The translations under genes and the position numbers were made by a program. A DNA stretch of 20,193 nt, from the UHGV virus genome UHGV-0040698; one strand, 5' to 3'. Origin of the DNA: a virus. Numbering within the stretch: the stretch's first letter is position 1; each line of letters starts with the position of its first letter. Under the pieces are notes generated by a model that did not search any database, was not told where the DNA came from, and saw only the letters and a program-made list of their open reading frames with translations. This document shows, one piece after another, positions 2,029 through 14,968 of this stretch.

Positions 2029-3024
2029 TCAGGCCAGCACGCCAGTTGCCAGCGCGCGATCGATAAAACGAAATATCAGCTCCAGCTGGGAGCCATACTT
2101 CTCTTCAAATGCCACGGTATCCGCATGCAGCTCGTCGTGATGCTTTCTGCACAAAGGCAACACAAAGAGATCATGCGCTTTTGTACCCATTCCACCCTGA
2201 CCGTGGCCTATCAGGTGGTGGGGATCATCAGCAGGCTTTCCACAACATGCACACGGCTGCGTCTTAACCCAGCGCGTGTACTTTTCATTAACCCAGCGGC
2301 GACGTTTTGGGCGTAACATAAAAGACTCCGGCGACTCTGGATCCACTTTCAGCGCCAGCACCTTTTTCGCTTTATCCTGGATAATGCTGGTGGCAGGAAC
2401 CGAAGGAACAAGGTCACTCTCCCGGGTGACAGACGGCACAACAGGCTTAGGTAATCTCAGTGCCTTACGGGCTGCACTTTCCGGTAAGGCATCAGCCAGG
2501 TCATTACGAACCAGCCACCAGCACAGTTCCGGCATTGTTACAACGTGACTATCATCAAAACCGAGATCACGGCGCACAACAGATAACACCCAGCGGGCAC
2601 AGTTATCCGTTGCCATTGATTCCAGCCGTTCCGTGAACTGATCGCGCAGCTGGTTATCGCAGTGCCAGCACAGACGGATTGCGCCCGGCGCGTGTCGCAT
2701 TGTGGTCATGTTCTCGCTGTGCCAGTCAGAATGGGGCCACTGGCAGCCTTTTTCACGAAGTAACCAGCTTTCAAGACATTCCACTCCACCAGCACGACGG
2801 ATTACTGCCTCATTGCGGAACACGGCCCGAACGGCAGGATCATCCGCCAGCGGTTGTGATGCCGCCGGAACGGCACCACTGGCGAAAGATGAATAACGTT
2901 CCGGCTCAGGCTCCAGCAGGACACGCCCCTGCATAAACAGGGGCATCAGCTCTGAACCTGGTCTGAACAATACGATCCCCATACGCGGGGCAATTTCAGG
3001 GGTCAGTAGTGCTCTCACGGTCAC
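2029..3024 (-). CDS. DUF968-family phage protein (YdfU-like) with Cys/His-rich HNH-like C-terminus
   Basis: C-terminal CACCGKPADDPHHL...CRKHHDELH motif typical of DUF968 prophage proteins; track start is GTG at 3024 and true start is uncertain (next ATG at 2982 lacks SD). Confidence 0.7.
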   Translation of the reverse strand: MTVRALLTPEIAPRMGIVLFRPGSELMPLFMQGRVLLEPEPERYSSFASGAVPAASQPLADDPAVRAVFRNEAVIRRAGGVECLESWLLREKGCQWPHSDWHSENMTTMRHAPGAIRLCWHCDNQLRDQFTERLESMATDNCARWVLSVVRRDLGFDDSHVVTMPELCWWLVRNDLADALPESAARKALRLPKPVVPSVTRESDLVPSVPATSIIQDKAKKVLALKVDPESPESFMLRPKRRRWVNEKYTRWVKTQPCACCGKPADDPHHLIGHGQGGMGTKAHDLFVLPLCRKHHDELHADTVAFEEKYGSQLELIFRFIDRALATGVLA

Positions 3025-3025
3025 C

Positions 3026-3841
3026 TCAATGAACGGTATTGAGCAGCTTTAACAGCTCAGGGAATCGGGATTCGAAGAAGTGCGGCTGCGTCTCGCGCGG
3101 ATTTGCAGGACTGGTGATGTTCTTGCCGAACATGCAGCCTTTCGCTGTCAGCGACCAGAATTTTTTGATGTTGTTAATCGAGGTACGGCTGTATCGTTCG
3201 CGCTGCTCGACGATCCCCAGCTTCACCATCTGGTGATATGCCTGATTAGCCGTAAGGCGGATACCATACTGTTTCAGCAGTGCACTCAGCGACAGCGTAG
3301 GGCGGCTTGAACCATCTGGCGCATCAGCAGGTGCATCAATGGCATAGATCGGCATAAGTTCAGGAAGACCAGCTACCTTTGATAATTTCTGGTATGCACC
3401 AAGTTTCGAGGAGTTTGACAGATTTAGAGTCTTTGCTGCTGATTCAAGCAGAATGACCCCGGATTTAATTTTGTCGGATGTGGTTTCTTCTGGTGATGAA
3501 TTATGAAGCGCATCAAAAGTACGTATCACTTTTAAGCTGAATGCCGGGCTGATCCACATTGCATATGCATAGACCAGCTCTTTACAGACATACGTCCCAC
3601 CATTGCGCCCCTGAATGGTGATGACAGGAATACTACGGGAATCTCCCGTAGTTTCTTCTTCCAATAATTCCACAAGAGCCTTCGTTTCAGGACGACGCAT
3701 AAACTCGTGAACTTCCAGCGAACGGGAGGAGCGATTCTCACCAGCGGCAAGAAGAGCAGCTTTCTGAAGGTCGTTAAGACAGTAGTTAGATTCGAAGTAC
3801 TGGCGCACAGAAACGCCATCAATTACAAGCAACTGATTCAT
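3026..3841 (-). CDS. KilA-N domain protein, antirepressor-like
   Basis: IQGRNGGTYVCKELVYAYAMWISPAFSLKV KilA-N signature; start moved from GTG 3853 to ATG 3841 which has GGAGA 5 nt upstream; LexA box lies in its upstream region. Confidence 0.7.
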   Translation of the reverse strand: MNQLLVIDGVSVRQYFESNYCLNDLQKAALLAAGENRSSRSLEVHEFMRRPETKALVELLEEETTGDSRSIPVITIQGRNGGTYVCKELVYAYAMWISPAFSLKVIRTFDALHNSSPEETTSDKIKSGVILLESAAKTLNLSNSSKLGAYQKLSKVAGLPELMPIYAIDAPADAPDGSSRPTLSLSALLKQYGIRLTANQAYHQMVKLGIVEQRERYSRTSINNIKKFWSLTAKGCMFGKNITSPANPRETQPHFFESRFPELLKLLNTVH

Positions 3842-4003: not shown

Positions 4004-4399
4004 TTACCGAGTTGCTAATTTGCAACTCGCTTTTTCGTACTTACTGATAGTGATCTCGACCTTCCCCTCCGGGATAACCGGTCCCCACTCCACCAGCATT
4101 CTTTTCACCTGACTGTCGTCTTCCCACACACCCGCGTGGGTCAGGGCGTCAAACAGCGCCTTGTTATAGTTGTCCAGATCGCGGATCCGGTTATCCGGAG
4201 GAAACAACACGATCTCCACTGAAGCAGGTGCCGACGTTGGTTTTGGCAGACGACGTAACTGCTCAACTATTGCTGCACACGCCGCGCTCTGGAATTTGCG
4301 CCCCGCCGCGCTTATCAGGCTCTTACCTGCAAACGCCCCTTTGTTGGGGTGTCGCCAGTACGTGTTCACGCTGGGCGGGAAAGGCAGGATCAGCTTCAT
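4004..4399 (-). CDS. rusA: Holliday junction resolvase RusA
   Basis: ~130-aa product with conserved RusA-like acidic core (DLDNYNKALFDALT...W.DD.QV); ATG with GAGGGG upstream; ATGA overlap with upstream gene. Confidence 0.8.
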   Translation of the reverse strand: MKLILPFPPSVNTYWRHPNKGAFAGKSLISAAGRKFQSAACAAIVEQLRRLPKPTSAPASVEIVLFPPDNRIRDLDNYNKALFDALTHAGVWEDDSQVKRMLVEWGPVIPEGKVEITISKYEKASCKLATR

Positions 4400-8034: not shown

Positions 8035-8709
8035 ATGAAAACAATCCATGACATCCGGCGGTCTAACGCCAGAAAACTGAGAGATGGTGTTGGCGGGAAT
8101 TCTTCCTTTGCCACTATGATTGATCGCGAGCCAACCCAGACCAGCAGGTTTATGGGAGATGGTGCTACTAAAAATATCGGTGACAGCATGGCACGACACA
8201 TCGAAAAATGTTTCGACCTGCCTGTCGGATGGCTCGATCAAGAACACCAGACAACGAACATCACAAAAAAACCTGATGTTTCAATCACTAATAAACAAAT
8301 CACATTAGTCCCTGTCATATCATGGGTACAGGCCGGAGCATGGAAAGAAGTTGGATATTCTGAGGTTGATTTGAGCACAGCAGAAACGTATCCCTGCCCT
8401 GTACCCTGTGGGGAAATGACTTATATCTTGCGGGTGATAGGTGATTCAATGATTGATGAGTACCGCCCGGGAGACATGATTTTTGTCGATCCTGAAGTAC
8501 CTGCCTGCCACGGTGACGACGTTATTGCATTGATGCACGATACAGGCGAAACCACCTTCAAAAGGTTGATAGAAGATGGGACACAGCGTTATCTCAAAGC
8601 GTTAAACCCAAACTGGCCTGAGCCTTACATTAAGATCAACGGTAATTGCTCTATAATTGGTACAGTGATTTTCTCAGGAAAACCAAGAAGATACAAAATC
8701 AAAGCCTAA
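8035..8709 (+). CDS. cI-like prophage repressor with S24 (LexA-type) autopeptidase domain
   Basis: C-terminal GDSM...FKRL Ser/Lys dyad spacing typical of S24 peptidases; N-terminal CI-type DNA-binding region; divergent from the cro-like gene. Confidence 0.85.
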   Translation: MKTIHDIRRSNARKLRDGVGGNSSFATMIDREPTQTSRFMGDGATKNIGDSMARHIEKCFDLPVGWLDQEHQTTNITKKPDVSITNKQITLVPVISWVQAGAWKEVGYSEVDLSTAETYPCPVPCGEMTYILRVIGDSMIDEYRPGDMIFVDPEVPACHGDDVIALMHDTGETTFKRLIEDGTQRYLKALNPNWPEPYIKINGNCSIIGTVIFSGKPRRYKIKA

Positions 8710-8718
8710 TCAATGTTT

Positions 8719-8745
8719 ATGAACCTGCTTCGGCAGGTTTTTTTA
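8719..8745 (+). terminator. Rho-independent terminator after the repressor gene
   Basis: GAACCTGC-TTCG-GCAGGTT stem with UUCG tetraloop followed by a 7-T run, 10 nt after the cI-like stop. Confidence 0.7.
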
Positions 8746-8747
8746 TA

Positions 8748-8780
8748 CTTGACAATGTACCTTTGGGATACATAATGTAC
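8748..8780 (+). promoter_or_regulatory. Sigma70-like promoter with embedded ATGTACC operator half-sites
   Basis: TTGACA (8748-8753), 16-nt spacer, CATAAT (8770-8775); ATGTACC occurs in the spacer and over the -10, the same half-site as the cI/cro operators. Confidence 0.6.
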
Positions 8781-8902
8781 CCAAGCGAAACAACGAACAG
8801 GCAGGACGCCCACGAAGTAGCCGCCTGGGGCATATGAAGTCCAGGATGATTCGTTGAGTCATGTTGTGCCACTAGGCACTCATGTTAAAGCAGGTGTATG
8901 AA

Positions 8903-9178
8903 ATGAAAGTCCAGATTTTAAACAATAACTGTGAAGTCGTTTGGTCATACGACATAGCCGCCCCTGTAGATCAGAGCGGCGATAGCTGGACCAATGGGAA
9001 ACATCAGATTATGGCTGGAGTTGTGTTCTCTTTACGCCGTGCTTTGGAACAGGCTGAAGTATTTCCATCAGACCCTGAATGGAAATGGCCTTTTTCTATT
9101 TGTCCAAATTCGGAGAGCACATTTCAGAAAATTGGTCAGAAAGTCGCACTCGAAGAGCATCAGCCAACTGTTTCCTGA
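8903..9178 (+). CDS. Hypothetical small protein (91 aa)
   Basis: AGGTG 8 nt before ATG 8903; first ORF after the repressor-controlled promoter; overlaps the convergent ORF 9096-9341 by 83 nt so one of the two may be spurious. Confidence 0.35.
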   Translation: MKVQILNNNCEVVWSYDIAAPVDQSGDSWTNGKHQIMAGVVFSLRRALEQAEVFPSDPEWKWPFSICPNSESTFQKIGQKVALEEHQPTVS

Positions 9179-9341
9179 TTTTTTCAGGTAACTCGTCGGC
9201 ATCGCAGAAACAACAACGCTCGATCATGTTGAAAGCCGATTCGTAGAACTGTTTCTGCTGAGTGTCGCTGAGACAGGAAAAGAGCGACGTTACGATGATT
9301 TTATTAATTGCATTATCAAGTTCTTTTTCATCAAAAGTCAT
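9096..9341 (-). CDS. Hypothetical small protein (81 aa)
   Basis: AAGGAA SD 7 nt before ATG 9341; helical charged product; antisense to the plus-strand operon. Confidence 0.4.
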   Translation of the reverse strand: MTFDEKELDNAINKIIVTSLFSCLSDTQQKQFYESAFNMIERCCFCDADELPEKIRKQLADALRVRLSDQFSEMCSPNLDK

Positions 9342-9577
9342 TTGATTTTCCTTTTATGTATACGGGCTTAAAAGGATACCACCGAGCCTGAAGTGGTGAA
9401 AAGACAGGCACATAACAGCTAAGTATTTTCAACCAAAGAGAATCCTTAGCGTTGTGGTGAATGCGGCTCAGCGCACGCGGGTTAAGGTTGAGGCTGACAG
9501 TCGACCTTCTGTGGATACCCACCCGTCTGGTGTGCAACCTTCGCCAGGCACCGGGAGGCACCCGGCACCACAACTTT

Positions 9578-9642
9578 ATGCTGTGTGTAGTCCTGGCGGT
9601 ACCAGTTTGTACCCTTGCTTCCGGCTGGTACCGTCCTTTTTA
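9578..9642 (+). ncRNA. DicF-like small RNA candidate with intrinsic terminator
   Basis: CUGGCGGUACCAGUUUGUACCC...CCUUUUU resembles the Qin-prophage DicF core UGGCGGUAUCAGUUUUACUCC...GCCCUUUUU as I recall it; terminal stem CGGUACCAG/CUGGUACCG differs from DicF GGCGG/CCGCC by compensatory changes; sits in a ~440-bp GC-rich noncoding stretch. Confidence 0.45.
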
Positions 9643-9778
9643 CAAAACAGAGAAGAGCATCACCGGACGACGGGCTCATAACCCAATCCATCCGGGCGGC
9701 TGCTACCGCAGGTGTTCTTCTCTGTTTTGTGGAGAAACTAATCGGCCTTGCAGGGTCGATATGATGAGGAGCAGCAAA

Positions 9779-10141
9779 ATGGCTAGCGAACGCAGTACTG
9801 ATGTGCAGGCATTTATCGGGGAGCTGGACGGCGGCGTATTTGAAACCAAAATCGGCGCAGTTCTCAGTGAAGTCGCTTCCGGTGTGATGAACACGAAAAC
9901 CAAAGGTAAGGTCTCACTCAACCTGGAAATCGAACCATTTGATGAGAACCGTGTGAAAATCAAACACAAACTCTCATATGTTCGCCCGACTAACCGCGGG
10001 AAAATTTCCGAAGAAGACACCACCGAAACGCCGATGTATGTCAATCGCGGTGGTCGCCTGACTATTCTGCAGGAAGACCAGGGACAATTACTGACTCTTG
10101 CCGGTGAACCTGACGGAAAACTCCGCGCAGCAGGTCATTAA
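9779..10141 (+). CDS. Hypothetical protein, YfdP-like (120 aa)
   Basis: GAGGAG SD 7 nt before ATG 9779; the track's longer 226-aa ORF is an unsupported upstream extension; first of five genes whose sizes and order match CPS-53 yfdP-T. Confidence 0.6.
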   Translation: MASERSTDVQAFIGELDGGVFETKIGAVLSEVASGVMNTKTKGKVSLNLEIEPFDENRVKIKHKLSYVRPTNRGKISEEDTTETPMYVNRGGRLTILQEDQGQLLTLAGEPDGKLRAAGH

Positions 10142-12353: not shown

Positions 12354-12703
12354 TGGAGCCATACAGCCTCACACTCGATGAGGCCTGTCATTTTCTCAAG
12401 ATATCCAGACCGACTGCCATTAACTGGATACGCACAGGGCGTCTTCAGGCAACACGCAAAGATCCCACTAAGAATAAATCTCCTTACCTCACAACACGAC
12501 AAGCCTGCATTGCGGCTCTTCAGTCTCCGCTGCATACTGTCCAGGTGAGTGCGGGTGATGGCATAACAGAGGAAAGAAAATGTCACTCTTCCGCAGAGGT
12601 GAAATATGGTACGCCAGTTTCACATTGCCGAACGGTAAAAGATTTAAACAGTCTCTTGGAACAAAGGACAAAAGGCAGGCGACAGAACTCCATGACAAGC
12701 TAA
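12353..12703 (+). CDS. Excisionase-like (AlpA/Xis-type HTH) protein
   Basis: [28 protein letters not shown] helix-turn-helix of excisionase type; TAATG coupling to the upstream gene; 3' end overlaps the integrase start by 124 nt, so the true C-terminus is uncertain. Confidence 0.5.
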
Positions 12704-13743
12704 AGGCTGAAGCATGGCGGGTCAGCAAACTTGGTGAAATACCTGATATAACGTTCGAGGAAGCGTGTGTCAGGTGGCTTGAAGAGAAAGCACATAAAAA
12801 ATCACTGGACGATGACAAAAGCCGGATCGGATTCTGGCTTCAACATTTCGCAGGAATGCAACTAAGAGACATTACTGAATCAAAAATTTATTCAGCAATG
12901 CAGAAAATGACGAACCGGCGTCATGAGGAAAACTGGAGACTCAGGGCAGAAGCATGCAGAAAAAAAGGGAAACCTGTTCCAGAATACACGCCAAAACCAG
13001 CGTCCGTTGCAACGAAGGCTACGCATCTTTCATTTATAAAGGCCCTACTAAGAGCCGCAGAGCGTGAATGGAAAATGCTGGATAAGGCACCAATTATTAA
13101 AGTGCCTCAACCAAAGAATAAACGGATCCGCTGGCTGGAGCCCCATGAAGCACAAAGGCTGATTGATGAATGTCCGGAGCCATTAAAGTCTGTTGTTGAA
13201 TTTGCACTGGCAACAGGCTTAAGACGCTCGAACATCATCAACCTTGAATGGCAACAAATAGACATGCAGCGCCGGGTGGCATGGATAAACCCGGAAGAGA
13301 GTAAATCAAACCGCGCAATTGGCGTTGCGCTGAATGATACTGCATGTCGCGTTTTGAAAAAACAAATCGGGAATCATCACCGTTGGGTATTTGTGTACAA
13401 GGAAAGCTGTACCAAACCAGACGGAACGAAAGCGCCAACAGTAAGGAAGATGCGGTATGACGCAAACACAGCCTGGAAAGCGGCGCTGAGACGGGCTGGT
13501 ATTGATGATTTCAGATTTCACGACTTGAGACACACCTGGGCAAGTTGGCTGGTTCAAGCCGGAGTCCCGTTGTCAGTGTTACAGGAAATGGGAGGCTGGG
13601 AGTCTATCGAAATGGTTCGTCGATATGCTCACCTTGCACCTAATCACCTTACCGAACACGCACGGCAAATAGACTCGATCCTGAACCCATCGGTCCCAAA
13701 TTTGTCCCAGTCAAAAAATAAGGAAAGTACTAATGATGTGTAA
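12580..13743 (+). CDS. Lambda-family tyrosine integrase (Rac IntR-like)
   Basis: N-terminal [14 protein letters not shown] arm-binding region; catalytic R (LATGLRRSN), HxxR ([10 protein letters not shown]) and Y (VRRYAHL); GAGGAA SD; transcribed toward the tRNA-derived att core. Confidence 0.9.
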
Positions 13744-13806: not shown

Positions 13807-13894
13807 TAAATTGATCTTGTAAAATCAATACCTATCGAATTTAAATGGATTTTTTGCCACAATATTGCCACAGTTCGTTAGGAATCAGACAGAA

Positions 13895-14968
13895 ATGGCG
13901 ACTATACGCAAACGTGGTAACTACCAATGGGAAGCTCAAATCCGTAAACGAGGTTTTCCCTCTCAAACCAAAACCTTTAACACCAAAGTAGAAGCAGAAG
14001 CTTGGGCCAAAATGATCGAGTCAGAAATGGCGAGAGGAGTTTGGCTTAGCCGCAGCGAAGCGGAATCTACGACATTGTATGAAGCCCTAACGCGATATGA
14101 AAAAGAGATTGTTCCCGACAAAAAAGGGGCAGTGCAAGACCAATCATTGGTGCGGATACTAAAAGGCACTCAGCTGGCGAAAAACTATATGGCCAGCATC
14201 AGGAGTGCCGATGTCGCCAAGCTGAGAGATGAATGGTTGAAAATCTATGCCCCTGCAACCGTTTTAAGGCGTTTGGCCTTACTTTCTCATGTATTCAACG
14301 TTTCGCGGAAAGAATGGGGCATGGAGAGCCTGCTGAACCCCGTAGAGGCCATTCGCAAACCTCAACCCAAGAACTCCAGGACCAGACGCCTGGAAGCGCT
14401 GCCTGTAGTTTCTGAGAAAACCGGTGTTACGTCAGGAAAGGAAATAGCCAACGAGATCGAACATATCATCGCCGCAACACATTCATTAGTATTGCCAGCA
14501 ATCATTCTTCTGGCGTTAGAGACAGCCATGCGCCGTAGCGAAATCGCAGATCTTCGATGGCGCTTTATCGATCTTGATCGGCGAGTTGCACATCTGCCGG
14601 ATACTAAGAATGGTAATGCCCGCGATGTCCCTTTATCAACGAAAGCCATCACGATACTGTCCAGTCTCAAGGAACATTCTAAGCCAGCTGCTGATAAGGT
14701 TTTTGATATGCGTGCAGACGCGATTACCCGAGCTTTTGACCGAGCTGTAAAACGAGCCAGAGAACGATACGAGAAAACAAACTCATTATGTGATGAATCA
14801 TTCCTTAAAGATTTAAGATTTCATGACCTTCGACATGAAGCAACTTCTCGACTTGCTGAAATTTTCCCTATGCATGAACTGACCAAAATTACAGGACATA
14901 AAGATCCAAGAATGCTAATGCGGTATTATCATCCAAAAGCTGAAGATTTGGCGTTAAAGTTGAAATAA
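13895..14968 (+). CDS. Tyrosine recombinase / integrase of the second island
   Basis: Catalytic R (ETAMRRSE), HxxR (FHDLRHEATS) and Y (LMRYYH); ATG at 13895 (the track start 13865 is a TTG). Confidence 0.85.
   Translation: MATIRKRGNYQWEAQIRKRGFPSQTKTFNTKVEAEAWAKMIESEMARGVWLSRSEAESTTLYEALTRYEKEIVPDKKGAVQDQSLVRILKGTQLAKNYMASIRSADVAKLRDEWLKIYAPATVLRRLALLSHVFNVSRKEWGMESLLNPVEAIRKPQPKNSRTRRLEALPVVSEKTGVTSGKEIANEIEHIIAATHSLVLPAIILLALETAMRRSEIADLRWRFIDLDRRVAHLPDTKNGNARDVPLSTKAITILSSLKEHSKPAADKVFDMRADAITRAFDRAVKRARERYEKTNSLCDESFLKDLRFHDLRHEATSRLAEIFPMHELTKITGHKDPRMLMRYYHPKAEDLALKLK

Follow-up and report, generated by a model that had tools for sequence, protein, structure and literature searches.

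The closest described relatives of the RNA element treated here are the STnc100 (RF02076) and PasD RNAs of prophages. PasD1 and PasD2 are Hfq-stabilised transcripts with many RIL-seq partners and have been seen on Northern blots (PMC8550237), 11 STnc100 copies are transcribed in strain EDL933, one of them confirmed by Northern blot (PMC5331693), and one copy in an Stx2 phage lies 75 nucleotides (nt) downstream of stx2 (PMC12370729). PasD is regarded as a relative of STnc100, and its 3' stem-loop with poly-U is a likely Hfq site (bioRxiv 10.64898/2026.05.13.724894). The element in question occupies positions 9451-9641 of UHGV virus genome UHGV-0040698, the whole analysed stretch of which (20,193 nucleotides) is called the window below. 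Two further kinds of phage RNA invite comparison: lambda 6S RNA and StxS of Stx phages are short terminated leader transcripts of lambdoid late operons, and the put RNAs cause factor-independent read-through of downstream terminators, which depends on the beta' zinc-binding domain. A last RNA to be compared is DicF, encoded in the dicBF operon of the Qin prophage of Escherichia coli K-12, whose 5' end pairs with xylR and whose 3' region pairs with ftsZ (PMC5069750).

A preliminary description of the region had seen in it a DicF-like small RNA (sRNA) inside a repressor-controlled operon. The analysis presented here points to a different composition. Positions 9451-9641 would form a composite, operon-internal non-coding RNA unit of about 190 bases, located in a repressor-controlled operon of the pL type and built of two modules. 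The first (9451-9574) belongs, as judged by sequence, to the STnc100/PasD family, of whose class II it is a divergent representative, and the second (9575-9641) is an intrinsic terminator of the DicF module type, highly diverged from DicF itself. The mechanism proposed for this unit below is given a probability of about 0.55, that is, a little better than even.

The structured core

The best match of the region among the Rfam families was STnc100, which aligned with positions 9429-9644 over all 206 positions of the model (39.5 bits, E = 5e-07); no family reached its gathering score in a scan of the whole window. The window copy (Table 1) carries the signature of an STnc100/PasD core, namely a closing helix (P1) that ends in GGUGAAU, hairpin 1 with a CU-NN-GCG loop, and, stacked on P1, hairpin 5 (CCGGGAGGCACCCGG). 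As in the known RNAs, a hairpin is followed by CACCGGGAGGCACCCGGCACC and then by a terminator, and the copy is located in a prophage. It differs from them in hairpin 1 and the middle section, in its position in an early-left operon without a promoter of its own (the known RNAs lie in the late region, after Q and ahead of the lysis genes), and in its terminator, which is of the DicF type. The loop motif of hairpin 1 is common to the class I hairpin CCCCU-GUGCGG-AGGGG, and in the class I register three of the five pairs change on both sides. Within the lineage of the window, position 9526 of hairpin 4 alternates between U and C opposite G9548. The hairpin 5 motif CCGGG-AGGCA-CCCGG occurs once in the window, against 0.01 occurrences expected by chance. 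This hairpin and the complementary pair AAGGTTG/CAACCTT had been noticed earlier and taken for possible processing sites; both pairings do exist, but they are parts of a conserved pseudoknotted STnc100/PasD core, with the CAACCUU strand (9535-9541) lying inside the loop of hairpin 4.

The core is a conserved fold with a covarying closing helix and a pseudoknot. This was assessed in a model-based alignment of 115 copies, using 500 shuffled alignments and registers with slid pairing partners as controls. All eight modelled pairs of P1 vary on both sides, the observed values being reached in 0/500 shuffles, and 91% of the cells pair as compared with about 50% when the partners are slid. The pseudoknot involves a segment approximately 30 nt into the core, which is complementary to the loop of hairpin 4 by means of sequences that are unrelated in different lineages: AAGGUUG / CAACCUU in the window, CAGUUAA / UUAACUG in Qin, and CUGGUG / CACCGG, CCAGUC / GACUGG and ACUGGAUA / UAUCCAGU in three class I lineages. 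Since MAFFT columns are unreliable for hairpin 4 and the pseudoknot, both were evaluated by a per-sequence parse and by a conservative column count on the model alignment. The parse gave a pseudoknot of at least 6 base pairs (bp) in 46 of 54 representatives; with a narrower 5' search interval, the loop of the same sequence was paired in 45/54, as against 23% for loops taken from other sequences. In the column count, made on an alignment not fitted to the pseudoknot, 71% were paired versus 55% after shuffling and covariation was 0.33 versus 0.16, either value being reached in 0/500 shuffles and all slid registers being lower. The pseudoknot is not part of the published or the Rfam structure of STnc100/PasD in the literature searched.

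Classes, distribution and genomic contexts of the family

A scan of viral contigs for the hairpin CCGGGAGGCACCCGG returned at least 120 loci, whose flanks reveal a large and diverse family. Among genomes of Enterobacterales, the exact hairpin 5 motif is present at no fewer than 120 loci at species level, and the invariant 21-mer is found in genera that include Escherichia, Salmonella, Klebsiella, Enterobacter, Kosakonia, Pantoea, Erwinia, Rahnella and Serratia. The conserved part of the family consists of P1 ending in GGUGAAU, hairpin 1, a variable middle, hairpin 4 and the invariant CACCGGGAGGCACCCGGCACC; the sequence 3' of the core is not conserved across the family.

Two classes can be distinguished by hairpin 1. 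Class I, with CCCCU-GUGCGG-AGGGG, is the STnc100/PasD type, and class II, with UGCG-GCUCAG-CGCA, includes the window copy. A sigma-70 promoter (at least 9/12 matches) placed to start transcription at P1 was found for 25 of the 111 unique copies, all of them class I (controls: 1.9% for shuffled sequences, 0 for offset positions). A terminator follows within 120 nt after the core in 67/92 class I copies and in 5/19 class II copies. Class II copies are operon-internal and often lie directly ahead of an open reading frame (ORF), and a promoter of their own was never found. Other class II copies score 23-38 bits on the Rfam STnc100 model; with scores of 23-39 bits for the class as a whole, annotation pipelines miss it.

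In annotated phages, class I copies sit in the late leader. The order in Klebsiella phage ST846-OXA48phi9.1 is promoter, core, two terminators and holin; Fels-1 has three copies (L130, 3103-4769) and HK639 one class I core (L124, 44811-44922), in each case in the region between Q and the holin gene. In HK639 four annotated terminators part these two genes, and the core sits between two of them. Arrays of tandem cores, each with a terminator, were observed at L026 373-988, L042 1726-2341 and L086 4380-4995, with three copies each at a spacing of approximately 253 nt. Like the lambda 6S and StxS-type leaders, class I copies are flanked by a pR'-like promoter on one side and by terminators ahead of the lysis genes on the other, and their transcripts occur in lysogens. 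Lambda itself, however, has no significant copy, and the window copy is not in a late leader. A supposed copy in the late leader of lambda was rejected: only the closing helix matches (12.2 bits, E = 0.14). IpeX of DLP12 was likewise dropped as a family member, as the family model R1 has no match in DLP12 and ipeX is unannotated in the record.

Another candidate was a switch of the riboswitch kind in which hairpin 1 and the terminator would alternate, prompted by a class I lineage with a terminator (GCCCCUCUCCGGAGGGGC) resembling hairpin 1. It was abandoned because the terminator varies from lineage to lineage and some lineages have none. Approximately 40-70 nt upstream of the class II cores in L100, L091, L018 and L077 there is a hairpin CCGGG-CAUCAU-CCCGG followed by CAC. 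It resembles hairpin 5 with the start of the P1 3' strand, and either a related module or the remains of a second core may be present there.

The terminator module

The second module consists of a single-stranded lead and a GC-rich hairpin directly ahead of a U-tract, as is characteristic of intrinsic terminators. The stem strands GGCGGUACCAGUU (9595-9607) and GGCUGGUACCGUC (9623-9635) are followed by CUUUUU (9636-9641). The previously proposed pairing of CGGUACCAG (9597-9605) with CUGGUACCG (9625-9633) is correct and belongs to this 13-bp hairpin. Folding of 9582-9650 gave z = -3.9, with equally stable structures in 0/200 shuffles; a generic terminator scan with a loop limit of 8 missed the hairpin owing to its 15-nt loop.

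In an alignment of 3' modules the segment GCUGUGUG (9580-9587) is kept across lineages with differing terminator hairpins, and L048 retains the core and the GCUGUGUG lead without change but has an entirely different hairpin. In the window's own (SfV-type) lineage only one-sided switches between wobble and Watson-Crick pairs were found in the stem (9606, 9634). These comparisons place the constraint on the lead and not on the hairpin sequence, the DicF-like part being the least constrained. The class II core of L048 is closely related to the window copy; about 3 kb from it, at 4100-4288 on the minus strand, are a C4 antisense RNA (79.7 bits) and isrK (64.3 bits). The sequence AC/UUU at 9573-9577 fits an RNase E-type site (consensus RN/WUU, the slash marking the cut) and may be comparable to DicF's 5' terminus.

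The non-coding stretch was earlier thought to end with the terminator hairpin, which is wrong: 137 nt more follow, including a 22-bp near-perfect helix. The fold of 9640-9790 has a free energy of -62.8 kcal/mol (z = -5.4; equally stable shuffles 0/200). Because this helix starts inside the U-tract of the terminator, it can form on read-through transcripts only; as predicted, it would be long enough for a substrate of RNase III.

Prophage setting and proposed function

The window represents an SfV/CPS-53-like lambdoid prophage, and bases 9300-9800 show 100% identity to many E. coli chromosomes and 99.8% to phage SfV. One of the strains with an identical locus is O157 strain 493/89 (NZ_CP038412, 5120833-5121143). 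In CPS-53, no copy of the core was found upstream of K-12 yfdP. The preliminary description was right about the layout, in which a repressor gene is followed by a promoter, a small ORF and the RNA region (Table 1), and also in that no dicB follows, the next gene being yfdP. The pL-type promoter is the sole strong promoter positioned to transcribe the RNA element and is situated just 3' of the repressor gene and its terminator. Behind yfdP come yfdQ, further genes, and then xis and int, and the rightward arm codes for cro, a CII-like protein and a lambda-type Q. The product of orf33 is neither arginine-rich nor N-like, and an N-type antiterminator is not recognisable among the genes of this prophage, rightward arm included.

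Table 1. Coordinates of the RNA element, of its operon and of the Qin copy (window positions unless another record is named)
Feature	Position	Strand	Evidence or remark
Class II STnc100/PasD-type core (by sequence), 124 nt: P1 around hairpins H1-H5 and pseudoknot	9451-9574	+	Rfam, family model, minimum free energy (MFE) fold
P1 5' strand GUUGUGGUG	9451-9459	+	exact 9-bp complement of 9566-9574
Hairpin H1 UGCG-GCUCAG-CGCA	9462-9475	+	family alignment
Pseudoknot strand a AAGGUUG	9484-9490	+	pairs with hairpin 4 loop
Hairpin 4 UCUGGUG/CGCCAGG, loop 9533-9541	9526-9548	+	per-sequence parse
Hairpin 5 CCGGG-AGGCA-CCCGG, directly ahead of P1 3' strand	9551-9565	+	invariant family signature
P1 3' strand CACCACAAC	9566-9574	+	pairs with 9451-9459
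Single-stranded lead of 3' module	9575-9594	+	3'-module alignment
Intrinsic terminator: 13-bp stem, 15-nt loop, U-tract 9637-9641	9595-9641	+	fold
Read-through-only domain: 22-bp near-perfect helix (9640-9661/9711-9732) closing small branched structure	9640-9732	+	fold
S24-type cI-like repressor (Peptidase_S24)	8035-8709	+	Pfam match; SfV annotation of cI
Repressor gene terminator	8721-8740	+	SfV annotation of cI, operator region and terminator
pL-type sigma-70 promoter: TTGACA, 16-nt spacer, CATAAT	8749-8776	+	11/12 consensus matches
orf33	8882-9178	+	SfV and PGAP annotation; phrog_3195/phrog_3311 region
Spacer between orf33 side and yfdP, 437 nt	9342-9778	+	holds RNA element
yfdP ribosome-binding site GAGGAG and ATG	9766-9781, ATG at 9779	+	first gene 3' of terminator
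Qin class II core region	L125 2936-3105 (core about 2943-3094); NC_000913.3 about 1649435-1649604 (core about 1649442-1649593)		between dicF and dicB

Some further features of the surroundings were recorded. The ORFs 8882-9178 (+) and 9096-9341 (-) are convergent, overlap by 83 nt and match a function-unassigned PHROG each (phrog_3195 and phrog_3311), only the plus-strand ORF being annotated by SfV and PGAP. Just upstream of the minus-strand ORF is a terminator-like hairpin of the same strand (9397-9378), which recurs ahead of the class II core in L080. Two tyrosine-recombinase (Phage_integrase) genes adjoin at the prophage end (12580-13743 and 13865-14968, + strand), the second of which may be part of a neighbouring element.

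Upon inactivation of the S24-type repressor, RNA polymerase would start at the pL-type promoter and transcribe orf33 and the core, and a substantial fraction of it would terminate at the U-tract, leaving an RNA with an Hfq-type 3' hairpin and U-tail. The length of this RNA would be approximately 191 nt if its 5' end were trimmed to the closing helix and approximately 67 nt if it were cut at AC/UUU (9574/9575). The same terminator might gate transcription into yfdP...xis-int, in a way comparable to tL1 in lambda. The core would serve as a folded domain, probably binding a factor conserved across Enterobacterales, and the GCUGUGUG lead would be the best candidate for a base-pairing seed.

Several points weigh against this proposal. 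The STnc100 score of 39.5 bits is under the gathering score of 47, and the 65.4 bits which R1 gives to the window core are inflated by near-identical sequences in the seed. The U-tract of the terminator has only five U's. Most class II copies lack a terminator and run straight into an ORF, which suggests for their core a cis-acting role, or one as a fragment released by processing, and not that of an sRNA body. The window element has a terminator, and a promoter was not found within range; with none directly upstream, it would stay unexpressed in a stable lysogen, in contrast to PasD and STnc100. Association with Hfq and stability dependent on it are on record for PasD and STnc100 and are predicted for the window RNA, and the choice of GCUGUGUG as a seed is a guess.

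The Qin copy and possible roles in cis

An unannotated class II core was found in the Qin prophage of K-12, flanked by the terminator of DicF and the start codon of dicB. It scores 63.8 bits on R1, and its hairpin 5 is the compensatory variant CCUGG/CCAGG. The closing helix comprises 21 bp by direct complementarity and approximately 28 bp in the MFE fold, where the extended helix pairs with the DicF U-tract and with the Shine-Dalgarno region of dicB (GAGGA). RNase III generates the 3' end of a 72-nt DicF, 19 nt past the 53-nt end (PMC5069750). This 3' end appears to map inside the 5' strand of the extended helix, and the position of the cut would be in vivo support for the closing helix. The stretch of approximately 137 nt upstream of the authentic dicF was also considered as a degenerate core and found unconvincing (10.5 bits, with a match resembling the closing helix only).

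The coincidence of the Qin helix with the RNase III cut and its pairing with the dicB Shine-Dalgarno region would fit a core that is a cis-acting processing, stability or translation-control element of a polycistronic messenger RNA and has no role in trans, whether as punctuation recognised by an RNase or as a fold occluding a downstream start site. The operon-internal, promoterless and usually terminator-less state of class II copies agrees with such a role, as do closing helices of 20-22 bp in Qin, L031, L035 and L080 and the separate 22-bp helix after the window terminator. In the window, however, the closing helix has only 9 bp and is 190 nt away from the yfdP start. Moreover, a simple long hairpin would suffice for RNase III, so that the pseudoknot and the invariant hairpin are left unexplained, and class I copies behave as autonomous promoter-terminator units. 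A role restricted to the messenger RNA is considered rather unlikely for the window element, and it is the alternative to the composite sRNA unit that survives best.

A wider proposal, which is speculative and unlikely as a whole, takes the core for a cis-regulatory phage RNA of a new class, one binding a host machine conserved in Enterobacterales, and not for an sRNA body. The core would mark the 5' leaders of late operons and internal sites of early-left operons, could allow regulated passage of terminators in N-less phages, and DicF-type sRNAs would have evolved as its terminator module. The most attractive candidate for the host machine may be RNA polymerase or an elongation or processing factor.

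Comparison with put RNAs

Another reading is that the core is a processive antiterminator acting in cis on RNA polymerase, put-like in function and unrelated to put in sequence. Polymerases from the pL-type promoter would then pass the terminator at 9595-9641 and later ones and reach xis-int. The prophage offers a reason for such a device, as no N-type gene is recognisable in it although an intrinsic terminator parts the promoter from yfdP...int. The core lies 20 nt upstream of that terminator, and in other phages cores begin at the transcription start of the late operon, upstream of at least one terminator. The 21-mer, invariant across Enterobacterales, would fit recognition of a conserved host machine, and the compact fold is closed at its 5' end, as is described for putL (PMC9378689). 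The two systems also have in common that a folded phage RNA domain is located upstream of terminators in early or late operons.

The likeness does not extend to sequence or architecture. Two stem-loops in about 70 nt make up put, as opposed to five helices and a pseudoknot in 100-135 nt in the family of the window element. Homology to put, which the hairpin had suggested, was rejected: putL and putR of HK022 and the putL-like RNA of HK639 are unrelated in sequence, the hairpin motif is absent from the immunity region of HK022, and R1 finds no match in HK022. The left operon of HK639 bears the annotated putL-like antiterminator RNA, and this phage carries the core in its late region only, apart from that RNA. 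Late operons that carry the core also encode Q, and the Qin core lies downstream of the DicF terminator instead of upstream. Finally, discrete RNAs accumulate from family members, with sizes as expected from RNA-seq data (PMC8550237, PMC5331693), so termination after the core would be efficient if their 3' ends are at the adjacent terminators. An antiterminator function of the core is considered quite unlikely.

Relation to DicF

It was also considered that the 3' module is a genuine DicF orthologue, that is, an sRNA of approximately 60 nt which represses ftsZ and blocks cell division on induction of the operon. As had been suggested in the preliminary description, its identity was checked with the Rfam covariance model of DicF (RF00039, gathering score 48 bits). 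The window region obtained 15.7 bits (E = 1.4, permissive search) and the authentic K-12 DicF, searched with the same tool, 76.7 bits. Measured against the threshold of 48, this refutes the assignment by the standard which its proponent had set.

The resemblance which led to the name is real. The DicF motif given in the preliminary description is accurate, as K-12 DicF and the window have TGGCGGTA(T/C)CAGTTT-TAC in common, and 17 of 19 bases are shared between 9594-9612 and DicF nt 15-32, a score equalled in 1/3000 shuffles. This 19-mer corresponds to the 5' arm of the terminator and the beginning of its loop and is the best DicF match in the window, barely over background (26 vs 22). Both RNAs have a single-stranded lead, a hairpin starting with GGCGG and a U-tract, with a putative A/U-rich RNase E-type site at an equivalent position; both belong to a repressor-controlled operon of a lambdoid prophage and adjoin a class II core.

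In detail the two modules differ. Only DicF nt 15-32 align, and neither the 5' end that pairs with xylR nor the 3' region that pairs with ftsZ is conserved in the window (PMC5069750). The loop which bears UUUUACUCCGUG in DicF reads GUACCCUUGCUUCC in the window. The window stem, which also starts with GGCGG, is paired to CCGUC, where a single C-to-U change gives a G-U pair; its 5' arm is near-identical to that of DicF, and the internal loop UAU/CUCU of DicF is replaced by paired UAC/GUA, so that the stem is fully paired. No pair is altered on both sides relative to DicF, and the earlier statement that covarying bases preserve the stem does not hold. The hairpin sequence is, moreover, the least constrained part of the module and is wholly replaced in L048. 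The locus is repressor-controlled like that of DicF but is followed by yfdP and not dicB, and the order of core and terminator is the reverse of that in Qin. No evidence was found for an action of the window 3' module on ftsZ; duplex and cofold energies against the ftsZ leader were uninformative, the authentic DicF being no better than its own shuffles. Orthology is thus very improbable; going by sequence, the 3' module and that of DicF are plausibly related at a distance and occupy homologous slots of their operons.

Such a relationship extends to other class II loci. A more DicF-like terminator lies approximately 100 nt after the class II core in L100 and L091, and the L100 module, to which the DicF model gives 25.8 bits, is an intermediate form. 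Related loci have 3' modules built on the same template as DicF, with a U(U/G)CUG(U/G)UG lead, a GGCGG...CCGCC hairpin and a U-tract. Among 42 unique class II contexts, 15 have a DicF-type hairpin within 260 nt (downstream in 11, upstream in 4), as against 0/224 for class I. Thus, the intuition about the locus was sound, given that a class II core adjoins the authentic dicF in Qin, and it was the family name that failed.

Non-coding status of the spacer

The spacer 9342-9778 is non-coding and relatively GC-rich (52%, and 59% for 9451-9641, versus 45% for the window), both as described before: the ORFs that overlap it have no Pfam match, and the family keeps neither a reading frame nor a periodicity in length. 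In 57 cores the lengths modulo 3 were distributed 21/19/17, frames anchored on the invariant hairpin 5 were open in just 16, 10 and 15 of them, and all three frames were interrupted by stops in 19/57. The PGAP pseudogene ('frameshifted hypothetical protein') over 9454-9764 in identical E. coli loci and the ATG ORF 9461-10141 (226 codons, in frame with yfdP) might indicate that a protein-coding gene has decayed here or that YfdP is extended at its N-terminus. This reading is hardly tenable and was rejected, since no frame has a Pfam match or stays open across the family, lengths have no mod-3 periodicity, variation tracks base pairs and not codons, and K-12 YfdP begins at the same ATG with unrelated DNA upstream; both the pseudogene and the ORF appear to be artefacts of a stop-poor structured RNA.

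Implications for the family

The pseudoknot, the class II subclass, the Qin copy and the association with DicF-type terminators are not mentioned in the literature searched, the coverage of which was incomplete, making this weak evidence of novelty. RNAs of the STnc100/PasD type belong to the most abundant transcripts that prophages of pathogenic E. coli produce and have been treated as ordinary base-pairing sRNAs. The conserved part of the family is now a pseudoknotted fold with an invariant 21-mer across Enterobacterales, and a divergent, operon-internal subclass of it escapes Rfam-based annotation. Taken together, the findings account for the DicF-like look of parts of the region, which are not DicF. 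The copy between dicF and dicB in Qin gives the family a tractable K-12 model and ties it to the biogenesis of DicF and to the expression of the toxic DicB protein.

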